A DNA stretch of 54,123 nt from a candidate division WOR-3 bacterium (GTDB lineage: Bacteria; Hydrothermota; UBA3072; B12-G15), in the NCBI GenBank assembly GCA_965649055.1, contig CBFGJG010000001.1, forward strand, positions 1 to 54,123, in the 5' to 3' direction. The notes below the pieces were generated by a model. That model searched no databases, was not told where the DNA came from, and saw only the letters and a list, made by a program, of their open reading frames with translations. Shown here piece after piece: positions 3,001 to 46,367 of the stretch. Position 1 is the stretch's first letter; the number at the start of each line of letters is the position of its first letter. Position numbers and translations under genes: made by a program.

Positions 3001-4137
3001 ATGAAAGACGAAATAATTTTTGTTGCATCCGACATTCCAAATATATTTAATAAATTTCTAAGGGATTACACAATCAAAAATGGGAAAAGTATAGAAAAAT
3101 CTTTATTATTAAGAGATGGAACTTTCCCGAAAATAAGATATGAGATATGTGCACTTTCAAATTCCTATTTTAAAACAATCCTTGAAGATGAACCTACGAT
3201 AGAAATACTTAAGAAGAATCTATTAAATCCAAAAGGAATGGATTGGATATTTGAACCTGATATATTTGATAAAGAACTTGGTTTTAGAGAAAAGGTTTTA
3301 AAGAAGGAAATTTATGATTTCTTTAAAGACCATATAAAATATATTGATGAAAATTATTCTGAAGATGGGAATAAATGGAAAGAAAAGATAGCAGGACTTC
3401 ATATACATGAAAAGGCTAAAAAATTTAAAAATGAACTGGATCTTATCTCCTCTATTAAAGTATTAAAAATAGACAAGGTAGTTGTCTTCCCATGTTTTTT
3501 CTATATTAATAGTTTGCTTGAAAGATGTTTTATAGAAAGGGCACATTTGCAGGGTTTGAGAAATTTTCTAAAGCAACAGTATTTATATAATGACGCTTTA
3601 ATAATATCTCCAGCATCTTACTTTAAAAAATCCATTTTAATACCTTTAGCGGAAGATGGAAATGCTCTGGGAAACGAAATGATTTTAAACCATTCTATAG
3701 CACACGAAATTGCACATTCCCTAACAGACAGAATAAAATTATCCTTCCCCTTATTTGATTCGGGTGAAGAGATTTTTAATTATTACGAACACCAGATTAT
3801 TACAGATATAATATCAGTAAAATTAATGAATAGTATAGAAAAAATACCTGAAGATGTTATAAAATATTTTGATGAAATTGATTTTGTAAAAATGATTGAT
3901 TATATGAAATATATTATAAGATTAAATAAAAAATTTTTAGAAATTAAAGATAGAAAAGAAAAGAAATTGCTGAAGGAGGAAATTATAAATGTTTCATTGG
4001 AATTTTTCAAAATTATAAGGTTTAAAAAGACAACTATATTTCTATATAACTTCTTTAAAGATTACATAAAGGATGTTTATTATGCAAGATGGTATAAAGA
4101 AATAATTAAAAATGAATTACCAAAAAGGAGATTTTGA
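3001..4137 (+). CDS. Hypothetical protein with HEXXH motif (putative zinc metallopeptidase)
   Basis: IAHEIAHSL motif with a downstream EHQ. Start at ATG 3001, directly after the upstream stop, rather than at 2896. Confidence 0.5.
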
Positions 4138-7769: not shown

Positions 7770-8872
7770 TATAACCACCCCATAAATGTTTCAAATATAT
7801 TCACAAATGCTGAATTACCAGTTAAGTTCATTATATTTGCAATGGTTGCAAATATTACCCCAAGACCAATAAATATCATAATAAACATTTTTCCATAATC
7901 AGAGCCTTTCACAGAACCCAGCATAACAGGTTCCCTTCCTATATATGAAGATGCTGCAAGTGTCTCTTCACCTATAAGGACATAATCACAAGCTGCAATA
8001 AAGAATGGAAGTTGTGTAGCAGCAGTTGTTCCTGCAATCTGAATAGCACCGACTGAATGACCTGTTTCTGCAAGTATAAGTGATTCTGCATAGAAGTATC
8101 CCTGTAAGAACACTGCACCAGGATTTTCCCTGATCATAAGGCCATCAACACCTGCAGTGTATCCAAATTGTTCGTATGTTAGATAAACTATATTCTTCTC
8201 GTTGAAATTATCAATCTTACCAACCTCTGCATATGCCTGCTTAACTGTTTCAGAAGATGCTGCCATAACTATCGGATCGTAGTTTGTAACTATGATAGGG
8301 GTATCGTATTCTGCTACCTTTGAAGACACCCTTCTTAAAATTGTTAATGCTGCAAGTGTCCCTGCATCTGTTATACCTGAAAGACCGTGTATAAAGAAAG
8401 TTGGTTTACCCATCTCTGTTGACCTTCCAACTGCTTCATCTATAGCATCAAGTGCCGGGATCTTTCTTATAAAAAGCCCCTCCGGATTCTTTCGGGCAAG
8501 CTGTATAAACCATATAACAAGACCTGAAAATATTATAAGAAATATAAGGACAGATGTCCTTGTTGTATCATACCATTGAGCCTTTGCTGAAACAGGTCCT
8601 GTATACAATACCAATGTTGTATCTTCAAACTGGAGCTCCACCTTGTAAAGATATTCCTTTGAATTTTTAACACCATCGTCTACATATTTATAGAGTGTCC
8701 TTGAAAGAATACCGATAAATTCAAATGTTGTATCTTCAGGTGAATTTCTGTAAACCAGACCGTTTTTGAGTTCTTTGTCAATCCCAAAGACTTCAATCGT
8801 AATACTACCACCACCATCATTCGGTGTATCATAGGATTTTATACTTAAAGAAAGTATTAAAAAAATCATCAT
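7769..8872 (-). CDS. FN3-like + DUF6754-like membrane protein, subunit A (copy 2)
   Basis: DTPNDGGG, EAVGRSTEMGKP, FYAESLILAETG, QLPFFIAACDY..IGEE. Start at 8872 by ATGA overlap. Confidence 0.8.
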   Translation of the reverse strand: MMIFLILSLSIKSYDTPNDGGGSITIEVFGIDKELKNGLVYRNSPEDTTFEFIGILSRTLYKYVDDGVKNSKEYLYKVELQFEDTTLVLYTGPVSAKAQWYDTTRTSVLIFLIIFSGLVIWFIQLARKNPEGLFIRKIPALDAIDEAVGRSTEMGKPTFFIHGLSGITDAGTLAALTILRRVSSKVAEYDTPIIVTNYDPIVMAASSETVKQAYAEVGKIDNFNEKNIVYLTYEQFGYTAGVDGLMIRENPGAVFLQGYFYAESLILAETGHSVGAIQIAGTTAATQLPFFIAACDYVLIGEETLAASSYIGREPVMLGSVKGSDYGKMFIMIFIGLGVIFATIANIMNLTGNSAFVNIFETFMGWL

Positions 8873-15025: not shown

Positions 15026-15880
15026 TATTGTTATCCTGTGGGTTAAAGGAAAATCCTCCTCATAATCCATCATAATAGCATAATAAAATTTAAGGTTTTT
15101 CAGATTAAAGCCCGAACCAAAAGATATTCCCCCTTTTTTAATACCAAAAAGAAAATCTACCATATCCTTATACGATATATTAATACCGAGTAGTGATGAT
15201 AATCCATAATCGTCCAAGATAAAATCAAAACAAGGCATTATTGTAAAATGATTTTTGTTAATTTTTAAAGATGAACCAAATTTAAGAGATGGATTTATTT
15301 TATCCCTGTTGTCTTTCCATAAAATCAAAGATGATGTTATATCCCTGAATGTTATACCAAATCTCAAATTATTCTTAATATAAAGTAAACCAAAATCAAT
15401 TCCACCTCCTATACCTCTTTCACCCATCAAATTCTCGTAAAATATTTTTAAATTCATACCATAATAAAGATTACTTAAGTTCTTTGAAATATTAAAAATA
15501 AATATATTCTGGAAAGCACTCTTATATATTATCTTTGAAGTATCAAGATACTCACCATCATCAAGTTCTCCATTACCATTAATGTCAATTAGTGCGTTCC
15601 TTGTATCAGGGATACCTGTTATTATATGATTGAACAAAAGAAATCCAAAACCATTGTTTTCCCTCTTCAGTGATCCTTTTACTGTGAATATATTACCAAG
15701 ACCACTGAAGATGTATCCACCATCTATTCCCAAAGATGTCATATTAAAAGATGAATATGCAGGATTATCAAATGATGAATTCGGTATGGATGAGGAGACA
15801 CCTGATAAGGCAAAATTTTTGGCATCAATTATCAGGTTCTGATAATCACCGGCAAAAACAGAGAATAGGAGAAAAATCAC
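15005..15880 (-). CDS. PorV/PorQ-like (UPF0164-type) outer-membrane beta-barrel
   Basis: A..ALSG..NPA, G.NLK, GGGIDFG, THRITIS C-terminus. Internal DINGNGELD Ca-binding-like loop. Confidence 0.6.
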   Translation of the reverse strand: MIFLLFSVFAGDYQNLIIDAKNFALSGVSSSIPNSSFDNPAYSSFNMTSLGIDGGYIFSGLGNIFTVKGSLKRENNGFGFLLFNHIITGIPDTRNALIDINGNGELDDGEYLDTSKIIYKSAFQNIFIFNISKNLSNLYYGMNLKIFYENLMGERGIGGGIDFGLLYIKNNLRFGITFRDITSSLILWKDNRDKINPSLKFGSSLKINKNHFTIMPCFDFILDDYGLSSLLGINISYKDMVDFLFGIKKGGISFGSGFNLKNLKFYYAIMMDYEEDFPLTHRITISKCFNK

Positions 15881-17886
15881 TTCTCACTTTCCTGTTCCTT
15901 CTTCCTCTCCTGTATTATTCTCTGTGCTATTTCCTGTGGAACTTCTTCATAACCTATCAATTTCTGTGTGAATGTTCCCTTTCCCTGTGTTATTGAACGT
16001 AAAGAGTTTGAGTATTTAAACATTTCTGCTTCGGGAACCTGAGCAATTATCTTCTGGAATTTACCAACTTTTTCAGTTCCAAGTATCTTTCCCCTCTTTG
16101 AATTAAGGTCTCCTATAACATCACCCATAAACTCATCCGGAACAAATACCTCAACCTGAAGTATAGGTTCAAGAAGGACCGGCTTTGCATTCTCCATTGC
16201 TGATTTAAATGCCATTGATGCTGCAATCTTGAACGCTATATCAGATGAATCAACGGGATGGAAAGAACCATAGAAACAGGTAACTTTAAGGTCAATAACA
16301 GGATATCCTGCAAGATAACCCTGTTCACATGCTTCCCTAACACCCTTCTCAACAGAAGGAATATATTTTGAAGGAATAACCCCACCAACTATCTCATCAA
16401 CGAATTCAAATCCTCCACCTCTTTTTAATGGTTCAAGCCTTAGCCAGCAATCACCATATTGTCCATGACCACCTGTCTGTTTCTTGTATTTCCCTTGTGC
16501 CTCTGATTTAGCCCTTATTGTCTCTCTGTAATGTATCCTTGGTCTCTCCTGCTCAACCTCAACACCAAATTTTCTTTTCAATTTATTTATAATGCTATCA
16601 AGATGCTGTTCACCAAGACCATGAATAAGTGTCTGTTTTGTTTCATTGTCATAAGTATGTGAGAAAGTCGGATCTTCATCATGGAGTTTTGAAAGTGAAC
16701 TTAATACCTTACCTTCATCACCTTTACTTTTCGGGATTATTGCAACTGTAATGATAGGTTCTGGGAAATTCAGTATACCTTCAACTTTAAAATCTGTATC
16801 AGGGCTTACCAGTGTATCAAGTGTTTTTGTTTCTTTAAGTTTAACAAGTGCACCAATCCCGCCTTCCTTCAATTCCATTATTTCGGTCCTCTCTTTTCCT
16901 TTCAACATAAAAATCTGGTTTATCTTCTCATCTTTCCCGGTTGTCTTGTTCTTTAAATTATTTCCTGAAGATATATTCCCTTTAAATACCCTTACAAGGT
17001 TTAAAGTCCCAACATGCGGTTCAACAACGGTCTTAAAAATAAATGATACAGTTCCGTTTTTATCTATTGAATTATAGAATTTTGTCTCGTTCGGTGAAAC
17101 AAATATCTCCTTCATATAATTAACAATCTCGTTTATACCAACAAGCTCATATGCCTCGCATGCAAAAACAGGAAATATTTTACATTCTTTATATCCTTCT
17201 TTTATAGCCTTTGAGAGTTCTTCATCAGAAATTTTTTCTTCGTTTATGAATTTTTCCATCAGTTTTTCATTCGTCTCTGAAACTGCTTCAATAAGTCTTG
17301 AACGATATTCTTCAGCTTCTGACTTAAAGTTCCCCAAATCTATTTCTTTTTCTTTATATGCCTTCATTTTTAAAAGGTCAACTATCCCTTTAAATTGTGG
17401 ACCTTCTCCCATAGGGATTATTAAAGGAACAACACCATCACCTATCTCTTTTTTAGCATCTTCGTAGCATCCCCAGAAATCCGAACCTTCCTTTCCAATC
17501 TTATTTATTATTAAAGAGAAAGGAATATTTCTTTCCCTTGCGTAATTTATAACTTTTTCAGTAACAAACTGAATACCTGAAATACTATCAAGGAATACTA
17601 TTATGTTATCCGCAACAGACAATCCAGATAATGTGTCACCAAAGAAATCCATATTTCCGGGTGTATCAATGTAGTTAAAGGTTATTCCATTGTATTCAAA
17701 ACTTACAACCTTCAAACTCATAGAGATTCTTTTATTAATCTCTTCTTCTTCGTAATCAAGGAATGAGTTTCCTTCGTCAACCTTGCCAAATCTGTTATTC
17801 AAACCAACTTTATAAACTATTGCATCTGCAAATGTTGTCTTACCTGTTCCTGTATGTCCTGCGACACATATATTCCTAAAGTTCAT
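15877..17886 (-). CDS. fusA: Elongation factor G paralog (EF-G2-like)
   Basis: GHTGTGKTT, DTPG, GLGEQHL, YRETI, KKQTGGHGQYG, GSFHPVDSSDIAF, LLEPI. G2, G3 and G4 motifs are degenerate. Confidence 0.93.
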   Translation of the reverse strand: MNFRNICVAGHTGTGKTTFADAIVYKVGLNNRFGKVDEGNSFLDYEEEEINKRISMSLKVVSFEYNGITFNYIDTPGNMDFFGDTLSGLSVADNIIVFLDSISGIQFVTEKVINYARERNIPFSLIINKIGKEGSDFWGCYEDAKKEIGDGVVPLIIPMGEGPQFKGIVDLLKMKAYKEKEIDLGNFKSEAEEYRSRLIEAVSETNEKLMEKFINEEKISDEELSKAIKEGYKECKIFPVFACEAYELVGINEIVNYMKEIFVSPNETKFYNSIDKNGTVSFIFKTVVEPHVGTLNLVRVFKGNISSGNNLKNKTTGKDEKINQIFMLKGKERTEIMELKEGGIGALVKLKETKTLDTLVSPDTDFKVEGILNFPEPIITVAIIPKSKGDEGKVLSSLSKLHDEDPTFSHTYDNETKQTLIHGLGEQHLDSIINKLKRKFGVEVEQERPRIHYRETIRAKSEAQGKYKKQTGGHGQYGDCWLRLEPLKRGGGFEFVDEIVGGVIPSKYIPSVEKGVREACEQGYLAGYPVIDLKVTCFYGSFHPVDSSDIAFKIAASMAFKSAMENAKPVLLEPILQVEVFVPDEFMGDVIGDLNSKRGKILGTEKVGKFQKIIAQVPEAEMFKYSNSLRSITQGKGTFTQKLIGYEEVPQEIAQRIIQERKKEQESEK

Positions 17887-17958
17887 AAAATCCTCCTCTA
17901 AATTTTTTTATGAATATATCTTATTTTTTAATCTTGTCAAATGGAAATTAAGAAGAAT

Positions 17959-18429
17959 TTAAAACTCTTTAATCCCGCCAAGGGCTTTCCAGTATCCATC
18001 TTCTTTTACAAACCTTATCTCAAAAGAACTTCTTGAACCATTTAACTTAATTCCGCTTGCATAAACAAATGCTGAATCTTCTCCAACCTTATCACCTGTA
18101 ATGAATGTATTACCTTTTTTAAAGAAGCTGTATGTCAAAAGCCATCCTGAAACCACAATTTTTCTAATATTTTCATCTTCTATCTTTCTCGGTTTCTGAT
18201 AATACTTCTTGAATATCTCAATAATAGCCTTTCTTTCTGTATTCACAGCAACAATTTTTTTCAAAACATCCTGATTTTCCTCTTCGAGTGCTTTAATCAT
18301 AACCTCTGCTATCTTTACAGGTTCAGTATCTCTGTCAATTTTTACACCATATGCTTCGAACGAATCATATTTTGTCTTCTTCCCGCAAGACAAGATTATT
18401 AAAATGAAAAAAAATAAATATTTCTTCAT
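17959..18429 (-). CDS. Hypothetical lipoprotein (NTF2-like/DUF4878-like)
   Basis: MKKYLFFFILIILSC lipobox; C-terminal FVKEDGYWK. Confidence 0.65.
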   Translation of the reverse strand: MKKYLFFFILIILSCGKKTKYDSFEAYGVKIDRDTEPVKIAEVMIKALEEENQDVLKKIVAVNTERKAIIEIFKKYYQKPRKIEDENIRKIVVSGWLLTYSFFKKGNTFITGDKVGEDSAFVYASGIKLNGSRSSFEIRFVKEDGYWKALGGIKEF

Positions 18430-18435
18430 ATTTTT

Positions 18436-18507
18436 ATTATCTTAAAAAAAATAAAAAAGTCAATTAAAATCCAAATTACTTGACATTTTTATCTTTAAAA
18501 TTATTTT
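18436..18507. promoter_or_regulatory. Divergent leaderless sigma70-type promoters
   Basis: Minus strand: TTGACT(18463-58)-N16-GATAAT-N6-ATG 18429. Plus strand: TTGACA(18480-85)-N16-TATTTT-N6-ATG 18514. Confidence 0.65.
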
Positions 18508-18513
18508 TATTTA

Positions 18514-21500
18514 ATGGTTGCCGATTTTAAAAATTTAATAAAATTTTCTGAGGGGAAAACTTCGATTATTTATTATTCAAACGATAATCCTGAAATATTA
18601 TACAAAACAGGAGCTATTGAATATAAAGGAATCCTGAAAAGCCAGTATCATATTTTAAAAGATTTAAATTCAAAATTTTACCCTATAGTGTATGATTGGT
18701 TTGAAGATGATAAACATTGTGGATACACGATTGAAAGGATCAGGTATCCTGATATCAATAAATGGGCTATGAATGTTAATGAGAGTGAAAGATTAAAATT
18801 AATAAAAATAGTTTTGATAAACATACTCGAAGGATTGAATATATTGCATAAAAAAGGAATAGTTCATGGTGATTTGAAGCCTTCTCATATATTTGTCGGA
18901 GATGATCTGAATATTAAGATTATTGACCCTTCTATTGACAATGAACTTATAACACCTGAATATGCGGCTCCGGAAGTTTTTTCAGGGGAGATTGATTTTT
19001 CATCAGACATTTACTCATTAGGCTTGATATTCTATGAGGTATTAACTTCTGATTATTCATTTAAAGATATAAGGGAAAGAAATAAAAGAAAAATTACACT
19101 AAAGAATTACCTTGTCCCAAAAGAGATTAAAAATGTTATAAATAAGATGGTTGAATCTGATAGAAATAAAAGATATAAGGATATTGATAGTATCATTTCG
19201 GATTTGCTTAATCTTTCAATGACGATTGAACCCAAGTTTATAAATCATTTTGTCGGTCGCCAGAAAGAAATAGATTTCTTTAAAAATGTATTATCGGAAG
19301 AAGAAAACTTTTTATTCTTCGTTTCTGGTCCACGTGGAATAGGAAAAACCACATTAATGAAAAGGCTTGATGTTATCGCAAAAGAAATGGGCTTCCATAC
19401 AGGATTTATAAATGATATAGATGAAATTGATTTAAAAGATTCTAAAATTATTTTCATAGATGAGGTAAACATAGATGATATAAAGGAATATCTAAAAATA
19501 AAGTCAGACTGCCTGAAACTGAACAGGGTATCCCTTGTTATTTCTTCTCTGGAAGAATTGAAGATTTCGTCAGAAATAAAAGCCTACTATTTCAATCTTC
19601 AGCCATTATCAACAGAAGAAATAAAAAGTATTATAAGTTATAGCTTTAAGGACATATCAGGACTCCATGAAATTTCAGAATTTATCTTGAATATGAGTGG
19701 CGGAATACCTTTTTATACGAATTCCATATTAAATTTTCTATGTGATAACAAGTATATTTATTTTGAAAATAATTCCTGGAATGCTATTATTCCATACGAG
19801 TTAAGATATGACATAATTTCCGACCTGAGAAGGACATTTGAAGAAGAAGCAATTTACCTTTTAAAGTGCCTTTCTTGTTTTGAAGATTATATGCCTTATA
19901 ATATTGTTGAGTTAATTTCGAAAGATTATATTGTTATTTTAAAAAAATTAGTTAGTTTTAATTATATCTATATCTCAAAGAATAAAATAAGGTTCAGGTC
20001 TGGATTAATTAAAGAAGAGATAATTCGTATAACAGAAGAAGAAATCAAAAAATTGGTTTCAGATACAGTTTTGAAAAATAAAGAATTATTACCACCCGAA
20101 ATTGTCTTTGACTTCGCTATGAAAAATTATGATTATAATACTGCAAGAAAAACTTTATTAATTATGATAAAAAGAAACATAATGAATGAAAAGTTATCAA
20201 TCATAAAAAAGATAAAGAATTATCTTTCAGTAAAAGATGATCTTGTTCTAAAGATATTACTTGGATTTTTACAGGAAAGAACAGGTATAAATCAGGATGC
20301 AATAAAAACCTATCAGGAAATTATTAAAAATCTCGTAAAAAATGATTATTTTATTTTCAGGATAGGTGTGAACAAAAGGAAAATCGGTGATTTGAAGGAT
20401 GCAAGAGCTATATTTGAAGAACTCTTAATTAAAGATGCCCCATTTAAACAGCGTTTAATGTATGAATATGGAAGGATATTGATTTCTGAAAAAAGATACA
20501 ATGATGTCCTTTCGATTATAAACAATCTAAGTGGAAAAATACCTGAAATAAGATTTCTTGAAGCAATAATATACTTTGAAAAAAATGAATACAAAAAATC
20601 TCTTGAAATACTTGATGAATTTCTCTCTGAAATAATAGATGAAAGTTTAGAGGGAGCAATATATTCTTTAAAAGGTAATATCTATCACAAACTTAAGGAT
20701 TATCAAACCGCTATAAAAGAATATGAAAAGGGACTGGAAATATATAAAAAATTACAGGATAGGATGAATGAAGCAATAAACAGATTTAATCTTGGAAATG
20801 TATATATGTGTATTGACAGTTACGATAGGGCAATTGAAGAGATAGAGAAGGCATATTTAATAGTTAAAGGTTCAAACAATAAACAACTTGAAAAGAAATA
20901 TATCCTTTTACTTTCAACACTTTATTTAAGAAAAGGTAATCTTAAATATGCAATGGATATTCTGAATAAATTTTGCGAAAAGTATAACTTCAAGGATATA
21001 GATATAATAAAAAAGGAGTTTTATCTATCTCTTTTTACTGGAAATTTCTTAAATGCTGAAAGTTTAATAAATGAAATAACAGATGAAGAAAGGAATGCTT
21101 TAAAAGGTTATCTTTCGTTCTTCAAATGTGAATTTGACAAGGCAATCGAATGTTTTAATAATGTGATTCGCAAGAAAGATGACAGAGAAATATTGATGAT
21201 GTTATCATTATGTTATTTTTTCAATGATAGATTTACAAAAAGTAAAAATATTGTAGATAAAATAAAGAAAGAAGAAACAGGTTCTTTATTTGAAAAGGCT
21301 CAATTTTATATGATTTATGGATTATACGAAAGAGATTATCTGAAAAAGGCAAAGGAGTTATTGAAAGAGATAGGTGCTTATATAATTCTCGGTGAATGTG
21401 AAATGCTTGAAGGTTATTTGCTGATAAAAGAGAATAAAATAAAAGAAGGATTTGAACTAATCCTTAAATCACAGGAAACATTTAGAAAGAATTATGCTTA

Positions 21501-23013
21501 TGGATATCTTTACTGGTCTATTTCAATAACAAACTCATTAATAAAAACCCTGAATAAGAATAATCTTTATAATGAAATAGTCAGGATGTTAGAAAATCTG
21601 TTATCTTTGATTGACAAAAACGACCTTTATGGGTTCATAGAGATAATAAAGAACTTTTTCGGTGCTGAACGTGGTGCAATTATTTTAAAAAAAGATAGAG
21701 TTTATGGGAAAGATATGGACGAAATTACTTTAAATGATTTGAATGAAATTTCAAAAAGCGCTATAAAACTTGCTGAAAAAGGTGAGATTTTACTATCCTA
21801 TAACGCCGGTGAAGACGAAAGATTTATGGATAAAAGGTCTGTTTTCCTGAATAAGATAAAATCAATACTATGTGTTCCCATATTTTCTCGTGATAAGATA
21901 AAAGGAATACTTTATCTTGATTCAACAATAAATAAAAACCTTTTCACGGAAGAAGACAAAGACTTCCTTTTAACCATTGGAAGGTTTCTTGGAATCTTAC
22001 TTGATAAAGGTGAAGTTTATTTAAATCTTAAAGATAAGGTTGAAAAGTTTGACAGATTTATGAGCACAGACTTTTCATTCTATGGTATGGTTGGTATTTC
22101 AAGGAGTATGAAAAATATCTTTGAAAAAGTGAGGGAAATAGCACAATTGGAAATGAATGTCCTTATAACAGGTGAAACAGGAACTGGTAAAAATATGCTT
22201 GCAGAGATAATACATAAATTGAGTAAAAGAAAAAATGAAAAATTTGTAGTCGTAGAATGCACAACAATACCACATGAACTTTTTGAAAGTGAACTTTTTG
22301 GTCATATTAAAGGTTCTTTCACCGGTGCAACATCGGATAAGATCGGTCTTTGTGAAACCGCTAACAGAGGAACACTATTTCTTGACGAGATAGGAGATAT
22401 ACCTTTGAATATTCAATCCAAACTATTAAGGCTTATAGAACAGGGTGAGATAAGAAGTGTTGGTGATGTAAAATGGAAGAAGGTTGACACAAGGATAATA
22501 TGCGCAACAAATAAGGAACTTGAAAGCGCTGTCACATTCAAAGAATTCCGGGCAGACCTGTATTACAGGTTGAAACAGGTAGAGATACACATACCACCCT
22601 TGAGGGAAAGGATAGAAGATATCCCATTAATTATAGAAGAAAGAATAAAGATAATAAATGAAAAATTCGGCAAGAAAATTAAAGGTGTAAAAGAAGATTG
22701 TTTAAAACTCCTGTCAGAATACCCATTCCCTGGAAATGTAAGGGAATTGATAAACATCATTGATTCTATATGCGCTATAAAAAGAGCCGGTTATATCGAA
22801 ATAGAAGATATTATAGATAGACCCGAGTTGAACATATATATAAAAAATGGATTGGACATAAAAAAACAAAATATAGAAAAAAGGATAAAAATAATAATTA
22901 ATACATTACAAAAAACAGGGTGGAATTACAAGAAAACAGCAGAAATAATAAACATATCAGAAAGACACCTCTTCAGACTATTAAAAAAATATAATATCAA
23001 AAAACAAAAATAA
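18514..23013 (+). CDS. Multidomain sigma54-dependent activator: Ser/Thr (pseudo)kinase + P-loop ATPase + TPR + GAF + AAA+ sigma54 domain + Fis HTH
   Basis: HGDLKPSHI, YAAPE, SDIYSLG; FVGRQKE, GPRGIGKT, IFIDE; TPR array; SILCVP...LYLDS (GAF); GETGTGK, ESELFGH.KGSFTGA, LFLDEIG, FRADLYYRL, PGNVREL; C-terminal HTH. Confidence 0.92.
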   Translation: MVADFKNLIKFSEGKTSIIYYSNDNPEILYKTGAIEYKGILKSQYHILKDLNSKFYPIVYDWFEDDKHCGYTIERIRYPDINKWAMNVNESERLKLIKIVLINILEGLNILHKKGIVHGDLKPSHIFVGDDLNIKIIDPSIDNELITPEYAAPEVFSGEIDFSSDIYSLGLIFYEVLTSDYSFKDIRERNKRKITLKNYLVPKEIKNVINKMVESDRNKRYKDIDSIISDLLNLSMTIEPKFINHFVGRQKEIDFFKNVLSEEENFLFFVSGPRGIGKTTLMKRLDVIAKEMGFHTGFINDIDEIDLKDSKIIFIDEVNIDDIKEYLKIKSDCLKLNRVSLVISSLEELKISSEIKAYYFNLQPLSTEEIKSIISYSFKDISGLHEISEFILNMSGGIPFYTNSILNFLCDNKYIYFENNSWNAIIPYELRYDIISDLRRTFEEEAIYLLKCLSCFEDYMPYNIVELISKDYIVILKKLVSFNYIYISKNKIRFRSGLIKEEIIRITEEEIKKLVSDTVLKNKELLPPEIVFDFAMKNYDYNTARKTLLIMIKRNIMNEKLSIIKKIKNYLSVKDDLVLKILLGFLQERTGINQDAIKTYQEIIKNLVKNDYFIFRIGVNKRKIGDLKDARAIFEELLIKDAPFKQRLMYEYGRILISEKRYNDVLSIINNLSGKIPEIRFLEAIIYFEKNEYKKSLEILDEFLSEIIDESLEGAIYSLKGNIYHKLKDYQTAIKEYEKGLEIYKKLQDRMNEAINRFNLGNVYMCIDSYDRAIEEIEKAYLIVKGSNNKQLEKKYILLLSTLYLRKGNLKYAMDILNKFCEKYNFKDIDIIKKEFYLSLFTGNFLNAESLINEITDEERNALKGYLSFFKCEFDKAIECFNNVIRKKDDREILMMLSLCYFFNDRFTKSKNIVDKIKKEETGSLFEKAQFYMIYGLYERDYLKKAKELLKEIGAYIILGECEMLEGYLLIKENKIKEGFELILKSQETFRKNYAYGYLYWSISITNSLIKTLNKNNLYNEIVRMLENLLSLIDKNDLYGFIEIIKNFFGAERGAIILKKDRVYGKDMDEITLNDLNEISKSAIKLAEKGEILLSYNAGEDERFMDKRSVFLNKIKSILCVPIFSRDKIKGILYLDSTINKNLFTEEDKDFLLTIGRFLGILLDKGEVYLNLKDKVEKFDRFMSTDFSFYGMVGISRSMKNIFEKVREIAQLEMNVLITGETGTGKNMLAEIIHKLSKRKNEKFVVVECTTIPHELFESELFGHIKGSFTGATSDKIGLCETANRGTLFLDEIGDIPLNIQSKLLRLIEQGEIRSVGDVKWKKVDTRIICATNKELESAVTFKEFRADLYYRLKQVEIHIPPLRERIEDIPLIIEERIKIINEKFGKKIKGVKEDCLKLLSEYPFPGNVRELINIIDSICAIKRAGYIEIEDIIDRPELNIYIKNGLDIKKQNIEKRIKIIINTLQKTGWNYKKTAEIINISERHLFRLLKKYNIKKQK

Positions 23014-23015
23014 AA

Positions 23016-23105
23016 ATGTCAGTATGTCAGTAAATGTCATTTTTATAATATACTCAAAATGAATTTTTTATCTAAAAATGTCAGTAATGTCATATGAATG
23101 TCAGT
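23016..23105 (+). repeat. Six ATGTCA(GT) direct repeats in two clusters of three; candidate enhancer (UAS)
   Basis: ATGTCA at 23016, 23024, 23034, 23078, 23087 and 23098. Both clusters begin TAAAAATGTCAGTA, 62 nt apart. Confidence 0.75.
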
Positions 23106-23142
23106 GATTTTTGAAAGGTTGTATTCTTTAATATTCCTTAAT

Positions 23143-23155
23143 AATCAATAACTTA
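23143..23155 (+). promoter_or_regulatory. IHF binding consensus
   Basis: AATCAATAACTTA matches WATCAANNNNTTR exactly and lies between the repeats and the putative promoter. Confidence 0.6.
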
Positions 23156-23161
23156 GAAATC

Positions 23162-23177
23162 GGGAACGATTTTTTTA
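23162..23177 (+). promoter_or_regulatory. Candidate degenerate sigma54 -24/-12 promoter
   Basis: GGGAACGATTTTTTTA versus consensus TGGCACGRNNNTTGCW. The -24 element is good; the -12 GC is replaced by TT. Confidence 0.35.
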
Positions 23178-23201
23178 TTGTATTATTAAAAAGGAGGAAT
23201 T

Positions 23202-23381
23202 ATGTGGTTTTTATATGTTTTTGTATTGTTTTTTAATATGTTGTTTCCGAGTAAGTTTATTGGGAAGCATGTTATTAGGAATGACATAGAAAGTGGATAC
23301 ATATGTGGTGGACCCGGTGATGTTACTACGAATGAAGGAGGACCCTATGATGAAGACCCTGAATTACCGGAACTTCCTTAA
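23202..23381 (+). CDS. 59-aa secreted-type peptide (absent from the ORF track)
   Basis: AAGGAGG RBS 4 nt before the ATG. Translation: MWFLYVFVLFFNMLFPSKFIGKHVIRNDIESGYICGGPGDVTTNEGGPYDEDPELPELP*. Confidence 0.75.
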   Translation: MWFLYVFVLFFNMLFPSKFIGKHVIRNDIESGYICGGPGDVTTNEGGPYDEDPELPELP

Positions 23382-23553
23382 AAAAGTCCGTCTTATAAAG
23401 GTTGAATTATTTGATGGCAGGGTGTTCTTTGCCGAGATGATTGACAGAAATTGTATGGGATATGAATTTAAACTGATAGATAAAACACCACCTGAATACA
23501 TTATAATAAATGAAGATGCAATAAAATCCCTTGAGGACCTCGGCTTTGTATAA
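23347..23553 (+). CDS. 68-aa small protein, Sm/Hfq-like fold candidate
   Basis: AAGGAGG at 23335-41 precedes ATG 23347. IKVELFDGRVFFAEMID resembles Sm1 and YIIINEDAIKSLE resembles Sm2. Confidence 0.55.
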   Translation: MMKTLNYRNFLKKVRLIKVELFDGRVFFAEMIDRNCMGYEFKLIDKTPPEYIIINEDAIKSLEDLGFV

Positions 23554-23568
23554 ACTCCCTTTTTGGTT

Positions 23569-23590
23569 GTGGGGCAGGAAACTGCCCCAC
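23569..23590 (+). terminator. Intrinsic terminator-like hairpin closing the peptide operon
   Basis: GTGGGGCAG-GAAA-CTGCCCCAC, a 9-bp stem with a GNRA loop, followed by TTATT. Confidence 0.75.
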
Positions 23591-23644
23591 TTATTACTTA
23601 AAATAAAACTTGACTGGAATAATTTTTTATATATGATTAATTTA

Positions 23645-25069
23645 ATGGAAGTAAAAGATAAAAAAGATAGTTCATTGTTAATAGACATAATTTTAAAAAG
23701 TATCCCAAAACATGGTATTAATGAAAAATTTTCCCTTTTGTTTAATATCTTGAATTTTAAAAGATGTATAGTTATTATTCACTCGGTTATAGATGATAAA
23801 ATAGATACATTTTATTTTTCAAAACACGGTGAAGAAAAATGGCTTGATTTAAGTCCGCAGGATTTAAAAGAGATTCTAAGGTTTAAAAATGTTTTCGTTA
23901 AGAAATCCACCCTTCCAATCCTTCCTTTTGATTATACTTATATATATAATAATGTTGTTGAAAACGACAAAGAAATCATTATAATTTGTGAATGTGATGA
24001 ACGTGAAAAAGGATACGATGATGATATTAAAATCCTTGAATTTTTCTCAACATGCTACTCATCTATTCTGAAAAAGTTAAGGCTTGAATTAACAGAGCAA
24101 TCACATAAAAGTATTATTGATTCTATAAGGGAGGGAATCGTTGCAATAAGGGATGGGATTGTACTTATGAAAAACAAATTGGGTGAAGAAATTATTAGCA
24201 ATTTTCCGGAAATATTGCATGAAAATTTTTATGGTGAAAGGATATTAAATTTGTTCGTTAAAGATGAACTGAGAAGCATACACTATGAAAGAAAAAGAGT
24301 AAATGACGTTGATATCTTGATATTTGAAGATATAACAGAAAAGTCAAAAATGATGAATTCCGTAATAAAGATGAAAAATTTTCATATACTCGGTGAACTT
24401 ACAGCGGGTGTTGCTCATGAGATAAATAACCCGTTACAGATTATCCTTGGTCTTTCTCAACTTATTGATATCTCAGGTAAAAACCTCGATGATGAGACCA
24501 AAAAATATATAGATATGATTAAAGATTCATCAATAAGGATAAAAAAGGTTGTAGAGTTCCTATCTTCATATATGGAACACACAAAATTAATAAAGGAAGA
24601 CAGATTGTTCAGGATTTCAAAATCTATAAAGTCTGCTTATGATGCTGTATTCAACCTTGAGAATATGCTCGGGATTAATCTCTCATACAATATAATTGAT
24701 GATTTTGTTGTGAATGGTGATTTACACAAGGTTGTGATAGCGATTGAGAATTTAATTTTAAATAGTTTTGATGCAATAAAAGCAAAAGGCGGTGAAGGTC
24801 ATATATTAATAAGAAGTTTTATTGAAAAAAACAAAGGAATCGTTGAGGTTGAAGATGATGGAATAGGGATAAAAGAAGAAGTGATACCGAAGATTTTTGA
24901 TACATTTTTCACCACAAAGAAAAATGGAACTGGATTGGGTCTTGGAATAGTTAGAAGAGTGATGCTTATGCATAAAGGTGATGTTAAACTTTTAAAAACT
25001 GGTGGAGGGAAGACCATATTCAGATTAACTTTCCCTATAGAATATGAAGAAAAAAGTGTTAATAATTGA
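23645..25069 (+). CDS. Cytoplasmic sensor histidine kinase (NtrB-like)
   Basis: H-box GVAHEINNPL, NLILNS, EDDGIGI, IFDTFFTTK, GTGLGL. Start moved to ATG 23645, 7 nt after TTGACT-N16-TATGAT. Confidence 0.9.
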   Translation: MEVKDKKDSSLLIDIILKSIPKHGINEKFSLLFNILNFKRCIVIIHSVIDDKIDTFYFSKHGEEKWLDLSPQDLKEILRFKNVFVKKSTLPILPFDYTYIYNNVVENDKEIIIICECDEREKGYDDDIKILEFFSTCYSSILKKLRLELTEQSHKSIIDSIREGIVAIRDGIVLMKNKLGEEIISNFPEILHENFYGERILNLFVKDELRSIHYERKRVNDVDILIFEDITEKSKMMNSVIKMKNFHILGELTAGVAHEINNPLQIILGLSQLIDISGKNLDDETKKYIDMIKDSSIRIKKVVEFLSSYMEHTKLIKEDRLFRISKSIKSAYDAVFNLENMLGINLSYNIIDDFVVNGDLHKVVIAIENLILNSFDAIKAKGGEGHILIRSFIEKNKGIVEVEDDGIGIKEEVIPKIFDTFFTTKKNGTGLGLGIVRRVMLMHKGDVKLLKTGGGKTIFRLTFPIEYEEKSVNN

Positions 25070-25394
25070 TGATGAAGAAATAATATGCCATTTTTTAAAT
25101 AAACTTCTAAATATGCTTGGATGTGAAGTTATTATTGCAAATGACGGGGAAAAGGCAATTGAGATATTAAAAAAAGAAAGGTTTGATATTATATTCCTTG
25201 ATGTAAGGATTCCAAAGATTGGTGGATACGAGATATTCAATACACTTGATGAAGATTTAAAAAAGAAGGTTGTCATTTTCTCAGGTGATGTATTAAGCCC
25301 TGAACTTTATCAATTTATTAGCGATAATAACATTAAACTTCTTAAAAAACCAGCAACATTTGACGAGATAAAAGAAATAGTAGAGAAATTTTAG
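25044..25394 (+). CDS. Single-domain response regulator (receiver)
   Basis: VLIIDDE, IFLDVRIP..GG, SG, KP. Confidence 0.92.
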   Translation: MKKKVLIIDDEEIICHFLNKLLNMLGCEVIIANDGEKAIEILKKERFDIIFLDVRIPKIGGYEIFNTLDEDLKKKVVIFSGDVLSPELYQFISDNNIKLLKKPATFDEIKEIVEKF

Positions 25395-26880
25395 ATTATT
25401 CTTATCAAGTGTCTTTCTTATTTTTGAAACAAGTTCCTTTATAGAGAAAGGTTTCTGAATAATAGATAGATTTTCTTCAAATATGAAATTTCTGTTTATA
25501 TAATTTTTAGTGTATCCACTTATAAATAGAACAGGAATATTCATATTTCTTTCCTTTAATTCTTCATAAAGCTGTTTTCCGTTCATCTTGGGGAGTATCA
25601 AATCAGTAACAAGCAAAATCTATTTTAATTTCTGATTTAATAATAAGATTAAGAGCTTCCTCACAATTATCAATTGTAATAACACTATACCCATAGTATG
25701 ATAAACCATTCTTCAGTATCTCCCTATAATTTTTATCATCCTCAACAATCAATATGGTTTCATTACCTTCTATATCAGATGTTTTTTCATATTCTCCAGG
25801 TTCTTCAACAATTTTATCTGTTGATGGTATATAAATCTTGAAGGTTGTCCCTTTCCCTATTTCGCTGTACACATTTATAAAACCTTTATGTTGATGAACA
25901 ATACCATGGACAATAGAAAGGCCAAGACCTGTTCCGTCCTTCTTGGTCGTAAAAAATGGGTCAAATACCTTGCTTAAATCCTCTTTCTTTATACCATATC
26001 CAGTATCTGTAACAGATATCATACAATAATCACCCAATTCACCTTCTGGATGTTTTGAAAAATAATCTTTTCCAAGTTTTACCTGTTCTGTTTCAATAAT
26101 AAGTGTTCCACCATCGGGCATCGCATCCTTTGCATTTGAACAAAGATTTATGATACACTGCTCAATTCCAGAAGGGTCCGCTTCAACATAATATTTCAGT
26201 TTATTATCAGGATAGAACTCTATGTTTATTTTATTTCCGAGAACCCTTGACAGTAACTTCAGTGTTTCATTAATTAACTTATTTATATCAACATTTATTT
26301 TATTCACCTCTTTCTTTCTTGCGAATTGGAAAAGGCTATTTAATATGTTTGCGCATCTTTCACACAATTTTACTATATTTAAAATTTCTTCTTTTGGGTT
26401 TCCTCCCATATCCATCTCTTTCAATGCTATTTCTGCAAATCCCATTATACCACCAATTATATTATTCACATCATGACACATCCCTGATGCAAGCAGACCC
26501 AATGCTTCGAGTTTCTGGACATCCTTTAGTTTTTTCAATAATTCACCATTAATCTCCCTTTTTTCCTCCTGTAATGTTATATCCTTCAATTGAACAATTG
26601 AATATTCTTTATCTTCAAATGAAAATGGGATAACGGTTAAAAGCATCTTTCTTTTACCATATTTTGGAATATCTAATTCTATATAATGATTCTCAATCTC
26701 ATCATAAATTAAACTATTCAAAGATTCAATATCAAGGGATTCTAAGTTCTTAGCTTCTTCAAAAAAATCAAAGAAATTTTTATTAGCATAAATAATATTA
26801 TTTCCTTCATCTTTCTCCACCACAAATACAATCTCAGGTAGATTGGAGAATATCTCTTTTAAGAACGATAGATTATCCAT
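25293..26880 (-). pseudogene. Hybrid PAS-histidine kinase-receiver (CckA-like) with a frameshift in the receiver domain
   Basis: GMCHDVNN, NLCSNAKDAM, DTGYG, GTGLGLS and ILIVEDD lie in one frame. The receiver continues as LVTDLILPKMNG...SGY...KPF in another frame. Removing one T from the run at 25615-25618 restores IDLLVTD. Confidence 0.8.
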
Positions 26881-45314: not shown

Positions 45315-46367
45315 CTATTCTTCTCCTTTCTTATCTTCAAGAATTCCTCTTAATTGTCCGCATGCTGCGAGTATATCTTTTCCTTTGCTCCACCTAACAG
45401 TTATAGCGGGTGATAAAGGATAAAGTATTTTTATGAATCTGTCAACATCTTCTTCATCTGGTGTTTTAAATTCAGAAGATTCAATACTATTGTATGGAAT
45501 TATGTTAACTTTTGAAGGAATGGACCTTGCAATCTCTGCAAGTTTAATTGCATCCATCATACTATCGTTAAATCCTTTAAATAGAACATACTCAAATGTT
45601 ATCCTCATGCCTTTTTTAAATGTATAATATTTTAATGACTCAAGAACATTTTTTAAATTGTATATTTTGTTTACTGGCATAATCTGGTTTCTTTTCTCAT
45701 CATCCGGTGCATTGATTGAGAATGCAAGTTTATACTGATATGGTTCTTCTGAAAATTTGTATATATTCTTAGTTATTCCGGATGTTGATACAGTTATCTT
45801 TCTTGCTCCAACACCTATATCCCTGTTAATAATCCTTAAAGCGTAAATAACTTCATCATAATTCAAAAAAGGCTCACCCATACCCATAAGAACAACATTT
45901 GTTATCCTATCTTTAATTATTTTCTGAACAGAAATAACCTGTTCAGCAATCTCATAAAATTTAAGATTTCTTTTAAATCCAATCTTTCCGGTAGCGCAAA
46001 AGACACATCCAAGAGGACAGCCAACCTGTGTTGAGATGCAAACAGTTCTTCTATCTTCGTCAGGAATAAATACACTCTCTATTCTTTCTTTATCTTCAAG
46101 TTCAAAAAGGAATTTAATGGAACCATCCTTTGATTCCATCTTGCTGATTAATTTCATTTCAGAGATATAAAATTTATCCTTTAATTTATTTCTTTCTTCT
46201 TTACCTATGTCAGACATTGTTTCAAAATCATTTACACCTTTTTGCCATAACCATCTGTATATCTGATTTCCCCTGTATTTCTTCTGGGACATTTTTTCCA
46301 TAAGCTCTTTCAGGTCTTCAAGTCTGATTGATTTTATATTTATTCTACCTTCAGATATTCCTTCCAT
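45315..46367 (-). CDS. rlmN: Dual-specificity RNA methyltransferase RlmN
   Basis: CISTQVGCPLGCVFCATG, MGMGEP, ITVSTSG, AACGQL. Confidence 0.96.
   Translation of the reverse strand: MEGISEGRINIKSIRLEDLKELMEKMSQKKYRGNQIYRWLWQKGVNDFETMSDIGKEERNKLKDKFYISEMKLISKMESKDGSIKFLFELEDKERIESVFIPDEDRRTVCISTQVGCPLGCVFCATGKIGFKRNLKFYEIAEQVISVQKIIKDRITNVVLMGMGEPFLNYDEVIYALRIINRDIGVGARKITVSTSGITKNIYKFSEEPYQYKLAFSINAPDDEKRNQIMPVNKIYNLKNVLESLKYYTFKKGMRITFEYVLFKGFNDSMMDAIKLAEIARSIPSKVNIIPYNSIESSEFKTPDEEDVDRFIKILYPLSPAITVRWSKGKDILAACGQLRGILEDKKGEE

Follow-up and report, generated by a model that had tools for sequence, protein, structure and literature searches.

A conserved sigma-54 cassette joining a giant kinase-STAND-TPR-GAF activator to a candidate precursor peptide in a WOR-3 bacterium

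Here, we describe a conserved regulatory cassette in a 54-kb window of the genome of a candidate division WOR-3 bacterium (the window is the whole stretch of DNA that was analysed, and coordinates refer to it unless another contig or locus is named). Between positions 18514 and 23590, from the start of the activator gene to the end of a hairpin, a giant sigma-54 activator is followed by two clusters of short repeats, a sigma-54-type promoter, an open reading frame (ORF) for a peptide of precursor type and a gene for a small Sm-like barrel protein. Judged by its recurrence in the sequences of related genomes, the combination of activator, sites, promoter, peptide ORF and Sm-like gene is a conserved cassette and not a chance arrangement. 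The cassette is real and has not been described before, and the signalling loop that it might serve is plausible as a hypothesis and is not put forward as a result. We read the cassette as a lineage-restricted sigma-54 regulatory module, and we would put the chances of this reading, together with the whole mechanism proposed below, at about even.

The evidence that carries the cassette comes from its relatives. The activator was searched for in 40 related genomes, and long matches were found in 19 of them, all within two families of one order. The sequence downstream of the activators was compared for 18 loci; two of these end inside the activator gene, leaving 16 that are informative. In 13 of the 16, what lies downstream is a small ORF (42-68 aa) whose product has a hydrophobic N-terminus and a tail rich in Gly, so that the downstream scan suggested in a preliminary description of this locus came out in favour of a peptide gene, although three loci lack the cassette. 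A gene for a 64-75-aa protein and then one for a PAS histidine kinase come next in every locus where the sequence extends that far (12/12). The cassette therefore includes a histidine kinase, an alternative receptor that the preliminary description had left unconsidered. Among the relatives' loci, a receiver gene after the kinase was seen in L044 and in no other; the window has one too. The enhancer-promoter-operon layout put forward earlier recurs as well, with a strict promoter and sites at the same two positions in 13 relatives. The reverse search, in which the Sm-like protein was used as the query over 185,579 species genomes, led to the same place: it returned 14 WOR-3 loci, with the peptide ORF upstream in 13 (the remaining locus is cut by a contig end) and the activator upstream in all nine whose contigs reach far enough. 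In four of the seven loci of one genus, a convergent radical-SAM gene lies just past the kinase (L031 622-1458 and its equivalents in L035, L036 and L038); it has a weak match to NrdG-type activases, 36.8 bits against a cut-off of 131.

The peptide ORF had been proposed as a hidden gene, and the comparison bears this out: its leader is conserved by purifying selection, and its tail is hypervariable. A profile built from 13 of the peptides and run against 5.8 billion clusters matched 82 proteins, none of which has a Pfam domain and for which the only name given is 'hypothetical protein'. The main clade holds 60 of the 82 and shares the leader MV[TA]LNILL[IV]LLGFINSLNKKPKNVDV.Q..GEVVL, followed by a tail of 5-16 residues that starts with Ser (45 proteins) or Cys (15) and has a terminal Cys in 57 of the 60; there are 57 distinct tails among these 60 proteins. 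Another clade carries one to four tandem GGPNDGGG.[IV]DE[IL]R units. In a further type, to which the window peptide belongs, a conserved Cys is followed by a Gly-rich stretch and then by an acidic or Pro-rich tail. Since the ratio of nonsynonymous to synonymous substitution rates (dN/dS) of the leader is 0.18 (12 distinct main-clade sequences, 54 of 66 pairs usable) and 7 of its first 20 codons in this clade vary synonymously only, the ORF is a translated gene on which selection acts. Precursor peptides that undergo processing are marked by just such a combination of a constant leader with a hypervariable C-terminal core and differing numbers of core repeats. The leader's hydrophobic run starts at residue 2, spans about 13-15 residues and has Lys after it. 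Pfam and NCBIfam gave no family for the window peptide or the window Sm-like protein.

The activator itself is, as first described, a fusion of 1499 residues, and both its ORF and its Pfam domains support this composition. Pfam places Pkinase at residues 45-222 (6.3e-21, covering model positions 49-253 only), an ATPase_2/AAA_16 P-loop NTPase at 246-313 (1.1e-9 and 1.2e-8), several TPR families at 615-845, GAF at 1042-1161 (3e-8) and Sigma54_activat (PF00158) at 1193-1359 (E 1.2e-65), together with AAA_lid_14. Taken by residue, the layout is a kinase-like region (about 1-230), a STAND P-loop NTPase (about 246-540), a TPR array (about 540-1020), GAF (about 1036-1161), the sigma-54 AAA+ domain (1193-1434) and a helix-turn-helix (HTH) at about 1455-1495 (ISERHLFRLL); homologues carry PF02954. 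The loop that contacts sigma-54 reads GSFTGA and is of the GAFTGA type. Its residues, those of the Walker A motif and the GxxGxGKT motif of the NTPase are invariant over the 16 aligned homologues. With the AAA+ domain and its loop, the C-terminal HTH and rpoN in the genome, the protein has the features of an enhancer-binding protein, and with a P-loop NTPase followed by a helical-repeat array it also has those of a MalT-like STAND NTPase. Full-length NCBIfam activator models align out to residues 1494-1499, all of them far under their equivalog cut-offs. The kinase-like motifs are HGDLKPSH and DPS, and both Asp residues are invariant in the 16 homologues; since the catalytic-loop Asn is replaced by His in all 16, kinase activity is uncertain. 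Within one genus, STAND/TPR is the least conserved part of the protein, with a mean pairwise identity of 0.53-0.72 as against 0.80-0.95 for GAF/AAA+, which is compatible with a diversifying ligand but is not specific evidence for one. Databases contain further proteins, 1600-1750 aa long, with the same domain combination; the one name they bear is 'sigma 54-interacting transcriptional regulator'.

What this activator would act on is suggested by the sequence just past its own gene. The six ATGTCA repeats noted earlier are all on the forward strand, start at 23016, 23024 and 23034 and at 23078, 23087 and 23098, and form two groups of three, a non-random occurrence; the whole window contains 25 copies of the hexamer on both strands, and comparable clusters number two in the entire genome, the window cluster and one other. 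Relative to the peptide ATG, the repeats lie at -185, -177 and -167 and at -123, -114 and -103. The relatives have two or three GTGACA-N4-TGTCAC palindromes instead, at about -180 to -207 and -105 to -122, so that the window clusters share the two fixed site offsets of the relatives, and in all 14 loci the sites stand at enhancer distance from the promoter. In the genomes of five relatives, hardly any palindromes occur outside the cassette; two of these genomes have one further perfect site each. The recognition helix of the activator differs along with the sites. It is IS[RPK]RHL[YH]R in the 12 relatives of palindrome type, ISERHLFRL in the window, where the repeats are direct, and ISRRSLQLK in three paralogues without a cassette. 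Because helix and site co-vary and because of where the sites lie, we assign them to the adjoining activator, and we infer that its HTH would bind the ATGTCA repeats. The repeats were also considered as a mobile element or an RNA gene, and this was rejected, there being only two copies in the genome, each at enhancer distance from a promoter.

The second copy of repeats plus promoter, about 80% identical, follows mfd on contig C12 of this genome (G000; 46042-46205, with the repeats at 46042-46120; 8043-8210 in locus L002), and is probably a second target of the activator. The gene downstream of it is cut by the contig end and has a GAF domain and a DhaR-like N-terminus; a TTGACA-N17-TATGTT box lies between its promoter and its ATG. 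A separate arrangement was seen in two loci of one genus (L062 at about 3082-3300, contig C43 of G008, and L063 at about 3143-3360, contig C14 of G011), where one perfect GTGACATTTATGTCAC palindrome lies directly against the -35 box of a promoter (TTGACA-N17-TATAAT) adjoining apt, and where about 90 nucleotides (nt) follow before a GC hairpin with a T-run. This unit looks like a small RNA gene, and no Rfam match was found at E <= 0.1 in L062, L063, L002 or window positions 17800-26000.

The promoter of the peptide operon was at first reported as a partial -24/-12 element. Its spacing is right and its position is homologous to that of the promoters in 13/13 relatives, although it fails the strict pattern. 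It reads GGGAACG (23162-23168)-ATTT-TTTTA (23173-23177), whereas all 13 relatives have a strict TGG[AC][AC][CT]-N5-TTG[CT] 40-70 nt ahead of the peptide ATG, with TTGTA or TTGCA where the window has TTTTA at -12; it is by homology with these strict promoters that the activator would have a -24/-12 target. The strong ribosome-binding site claimed for the peptide gene is a GGAGG, and it is found in 14/14 loci. The C12 copy has GGAATG-AAAT-TTTTA, AGGAACG-N4-TTTTA stands ahead of each of the two pilin genes here, and none of the 22 canonical sigma-54 matches in the genome falls outside long open frames. For these reasons we take TTTTA to be this genome's own -12 variant. The relatives' orthologous pilin genes have TGG-N9-TTG in 6/10 and the TTTTA form in one. 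The sigma-54-type promoters collected here appear to follow [AG]GGAA[CT]G-N4-TTTT[AT]TAT, with the G/C of the -12 element changed to T and the first T of TGG often lost (window 23162-23177; in G000, contig C13 21341 and 21861 (L068), C12 31779, C8 1551 and C3 25075), which may reflect a lineage-specific shift in -12 recognition by sigma-54. A canonical -12 displaced by 5 nt (TTGT at 23178-23181) was considered and rejected, as the spacing is wrong and the C12 copy has no such TTGT.

Adjoining the -24 element is an exact match to WATCAANNNNTTR, the IHF consensus, at 23143-23155. The match itself, claimed in the preliminary description, stands, but it is not significant alone, since the window holds 8 such matches as against 13 +/- 3.6 in shuffles. 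The same or a near-identical box is found at the same offset in 4/13 relatives, and ATCAATA lies at a similar offset ahead of two other TTTTA-type promoters of this genome. The box is probably a real architectural or promoter-proximal element, and IHF binding itself is putative. A genome check for rpoN and ihf, as had been suggested, found rpoN (132.8 bits) and two HU/IHF-family genes among the contents of a 2.08-Mb assembly (31.6% GC, completeness 93.8%) that also encodes seven clear sigma-54 activators. The GC hairpin said to close the operon was found to have 9 bp, 7 of them GC pairs, with a free energy of -20.6 kcal/mol and a z-score of -3.55, and none of 200 shuffles was as stable.

The second gene of the operon, which overlaps the peptide ORF as first noted, had been called Sm-like, and this description holds for the predicted fold and not for family membership. 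In the model of the 68-aa product (predicted local distance difference test score 81.7), five strands form a barrel, the N-terminus is disordered and there is no helix. Its best Foldseek matches are DUF903 lipoproteins and Hfq (E about 0.01, template modelling score about 0.6), and alignment with VIA-align puts Hfq at Z 6.4-7.0 and WYL-domain regulators at Z 5.3-5.8, middling values on the scale of that tool. The Pfam Hfq profile stays under threshold, with E 0.08-0.2 in 3/12 members and 11.7-13 bits against a 27-bit cut-off; DUF6982 gives a sub-threshold match in 8/12 members. The family is tiny, with 13 clusters among 1.84 billion representative proteins, and a metagenome scan with the window protein found no relative. 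Within a genus whose peptide tails differ, the Sm-like protein is nearly invariant. If it binds the peptide, therefore, it would be the leader that it binds; binding of the leader and binding of RNA are both possible roles. A distant homologue (29% identity) occurs in candidate division TA06 (L060 5401-5592), preceded by a 953-aa ORF with an HTH-like C-terminus and a 478-aa ORF, and no peptide ORF of at least 35 aa lies directly upstream of it. In one further locus (L032 5027-5173, equal to L046 5846-5992), a masked run, X in translation, separates the peptide and Sm-like genes and comes after an apparent duplicated start of the latter.

In the window, the histidine kinase would be transcribed apart from these two genes: the two-gene operon ends at the terminator, and the kinase has a separate sigma-70-like promoter at 23610-23637 (TTGACT-16-TATGAT). 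In the relatives, the gap ahead of the kinase gene is mostly 14-110 nt. The sigma-70-like promoter ends 7 nt before an in-frame kinase ATG (23645), an arrangement similar to that at the C12 gene, and suggests a leaderless kinase transcript. As a candidate receptor for the peptide, the PAS histidine kinase is placed equally with the STAND-TPR region of the activator. Co-folding of activator residues 540-1020 (16-row alignment) with the peptide (13-row alignment) scored 0.01 against a mark of 0.32, a value that speaks neither for nor against binding. The features of the locus are collected in Table 1.

Table 1. Features of the cassette and its downstream neighbours, in window coordinates
Feature	Position	Strand	Remarks
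Enhancer-binding protein, 1499 aa	18514..23013	+	ORF, Pfam, NCBIfam, 16 aligned homologues, HTH comparison
Distal upstream activator site (candidate)	23016..23039	+	Three direct ATGTCA(GT) repeats; starts 3 nt past the activator stop codon
Proximal upstream activator site (candidate)	23078..23103	+	Three direct ATGTCA repeats
AATCAATAACTTA box	23143..23155	+	Exact IHF consensus; ends 6 nt upstream of GGGAACG
Predicted sigma-54 promoter, genome-variant type	23162..23177	+	GGGAACG-ATTT-TTTTA; homology with relatives
GGAGG ribosome-binding site	23193..23197	+	4 nt ahead of ATG (23202)
Precursor-type peptide, 59 aa	23202..23381	+	Hydrophobic leader MWFLYVFVLFFNMLF, middle region, Cys35, acidic Pro-rich tail
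Sm-like small beta-barrel protein, 68 aa	23347..23553	+	Own GGAGG 5 nt upstream; 35-nt overlap with peptide ORF
Intrinsic-terminator-like GC hairpin	23569..23590	+	End of two-gene operon
Cytoplasmic sensor histidine kinase (HisKA + HATPase_c)	23633..25069	+	Conserved in relatives as fourth cassette gene
Stand-alone receiver-domain protein, 116 aa	25044..25394	+	Overlaps end of kinase gene

In the mechanism we propose, the C-terminal HTH of the activator would bind the two clusters of three ATGTCA that begin 3 nt past its own stop codon, and the activator, once switched on by its sensor modules, would remodel sigma-54 RNA polymerase at GGGAACG-N4-TTTTA. Transcription from this promoter would yield the two-gene operon for the 59-aa precursor peptide and the 68-aa Sm-like barrel, terminated by the hairpin. 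The hydrophobic leader may carry the peptide to or across the inner membrane, and the fast-evolving C-terminal part would most likely be released as a small extracytoplasmic signal peptide, with either the STAND-TPR region of the activator or the adjoining PAS histidine kinase as its putative receptor. We infer the export, the processing and the signalling role of the peptide from its form. Several observations weigh against this proposal. The genome encodes BamA and the cell would accordingly be diderm, so that export via Sec alone would end in the periplasm. Positive charge is missing from the N-terminus of the leader, and positive residues come after it, which would suit either an export signal of atypical kind or an N-out/C-in membrane anchor that stays unreleased. 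Genes for processing or export are absent from the cassette, and at E <= 0.01 the 93.8%-complete genome yields no match to AgrB (PF04647) or peptidase C39 (PF03412). The window peptide is the sole member of its type and has no close relatives in which variation of its tail could be seen. The window promoter departs from the strict -24/-12 pattern, and counts of the TTTTA pattern show no enrichment (22 matches as against 21 in the reversed control, and 6 as against 4 outside long frames), so that the promoter call rests on positional homology. Finally, three activator paralogues (L040, L041 and L042, in relatives G023, G013 and G019) are without the peptide cassette, and the closest database homologue of the activator (P0084, 48% identity) has no cassette downstream on its own contig. 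The genomes of the three cassette-less loci also hold a second, fragmentary activator copy. These loci, which have the ISRRSLQLK helix, are followed by queD/queE/queC-like genes.

The possibility that the module closes on itself deserves consideration, since a TPR-bearing cytoplasmic regulator lies directly upstream of a 42-93-aa precursor with a variable C-terminus. The peptide would be exported, trimmed and re-imported via an Opp-type permease, and would bind the TPR/STAND region of the activator to give more peptide, which is RRNPP logic placed on sigma-54. The genome does encode three OppA-type binding proteins, and the variability of STAND/TPR within one genus is as such an autoinduction loop would have it. 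Low conservation of sensor regions is common, however, and not specific to this model, the cassette offers a second candidate receptor in the PAS kinase, and the cell is diderm, while RRNPP systems are known essentially from Bacillota and phage; we consider the loop unlikely. Stated most fully, as a closed pheromone circuit in a diderm uncultured phylum, with the hypervariable tail as the ligand of an NLR-like STAND-TPR sigma-54 activator that drives the peptide gene, the idea appears to us rather improbable. The tail would then possibly be cyclised between Ser/Cys and the terminal Cys, with many species 'dialects', and, if true, this would be RRNPP-style quorum sensing evolved independently and wired through sigma-54. 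The same conserved leader and hypervariable core are also the classic layout of modified-peptide precursors, and the peptide could instead be a secreted effector, for example a ribosomally made, cyclised or modified peptide of antimicrobial type, with the activator sensing some other cue. In 57/60 main-clade proteins the core lies between an invariant Ser/Cys and a terminal Cys, which suggests a ring, and one clade has multi-core tandem repeats. The conserved cassette, however, carries no modifying enzyme, transporter or immunity gene, its conserved partner genes are all regulatory (activator, histidine kinase, receiver), and the sole nearby radical-SAM gene is convergent, is present in 4/7 loci of one genus and scores as a generic activase. 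An effector role, too, we hold to be unlikely.

Two further explanations take the peptide or the sites out of a signalling role altogether. The peptide might stay in the cell as an N-out, C-in anchor of the inner membrane, acting with the Sm-like protein and the kinase as, for example, a membrane-state sensor or kinase modulator; small membrane proteins from stress operons driven by sigma-54 offer an analogy. A hydrophobic stretch from residue 2 followed by Lys-rich sequence fits the positive-inside rule, the Sm-like partner, a cytoplasmic protein, hardly changes as the tails vary, and the peptide and Sm-like genes overlap or abut, suggesting coupled translation. A run of about 13-15 hydrophobic residues is nevertheless short for a membrane span, and a hypervariable tail with a changing number of core repeats is hard to explain for a cytoplasmic structural tail, which makes a retained anchor distinctly improbable. 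It is also conceivable that some regulator other than the adjoining activator binds the repeats, adjacency being a matter of shared history and not of control. In two relatives an extra perfect palindrome abuts a sigma-70-type -35 box and not a sigma-54 promoter, and some activator paralogues lack the cassette; but HTH and sites change together across clades, and the sites begin 3 nt past the activator stop and stand at enhancer distance from the sigma-54 promoter in 14/14 loci. We regard control by another protein as very unlikely, and return to the sigma-54 module driven by the adjoining activator in comparing the locus with known systems.

The activator resembles those of the NifA/FhlA/NorR type in its GAF domain, its sigma-54 AAA+ domain with a GAFTGA-type loop and its C-terminal HTH, as well as in the upstream sites and -24/-12 promoter; the NifA model aligns over residues 1036-1434 with 309 bits against a cut-off of 529. 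Unlike these proteins, it has about 1030 extra N-terminal residues (kinase-like, STAND NTPase, TPR), and its likely target is a peptide operon and not a metabolic one. With MalT-like STAND activators and with kinase-STAND proteins, PknK among them, it shares an AAA_16/ATPase_2 NTPase, a helical-repeat sensor and a DNA-binding output, and some of its database homologues carry a TPR_MalT domain. Its output, in contrast, is a complete sigma-54 AAA+ domain and not a LuxR-type HTH, which puts two different ATPase switches in one chain. The preliminary description went further and invoked RRNPP signalling, and this assignment did not hold: the TPR families are generic ones in a STAND activator, the receptor is non-homologous, and no RRNPP-type receptor is among the best 25 of 43 Pfam families or the best 25 of 60 NCBIfam matches to the activator. 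There is RRNPP logic at most. As in Rap-Phr, PlcR-PapR, NprR-NprX and AimR-AimP, a cytoplasmic TPR regulator adjoins a 40-90-aa precursor, and the precursor resembles Phr, PapR and AimP in its hydrophobic N-terminus and its variable C-terminal part. Apart from the receptor, the differences are a diderm host of another phylum and an output via sigma-54. Cytoplasmic receptors for peptide signals between cells are known almost exclusively from Bacillota and the phages of that phylum. The peptides also recall AgrD precursors in being short, with a hydrophobic or amphipathic leader, a Ser/Cys that opens the variable part and, in some clades, an acidic Pro-containing tail. However, no AgrB homologue was found, the cassette kinase is cytoplasmic and not of the membrane AgrC type, and the main clade ends in Cys with no cleavable tail. 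The Sm-like product is predicted to share a five-strand barrel fold with Hfq/Sm/LSm and WYL proteins, and differs from Hfq/Sm in that its model lacks the N-terminal helix, its Pfam Hfq match is sub-threshold and its family is tiny.

Upstream of the activator, on the opposite strand, the window contains a gene for an EF-G-family GTPase paralogue of 669 aa (15877-17886) and one for a 156-aa protein with a lipoprotein-like N-terminus (17959-18429).

Kinase-activator fusions have reportedly been noted in myxobacteria. The matched passages of PMC8538405 make no mention of them. Literature searches combining sigma-54 with protein kinase, TPR and GAF, or RRNPP with sigma-54/RpoN, brought up no such system in the titles or abstract openings listed, and searches for Sigma54_activat with Pkinase and for DUF6982 returned nothing. 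Within the parts of the literature searched, no ligand, target or peptide partner is given for the giant kinase-STAND-TPR-GAF sigma-54 activators. The locus is thus an enhancer-dependent operon with a sensor and a cargo not previously described.

Giant kinase-STAND-TPR-GAF sigma-54 activators are common in the databases, and the locus described here offers a concrete and conserved candidate target operon for them, together with candidate DNA sites. The 82 unannotated peptides, each a leader plus a hypervariable core, provide a candidate ligand family. The function of this class of giant activators thereby becomes directly testable, and the locus points to peptide products in a phylum with almost no cultured members.

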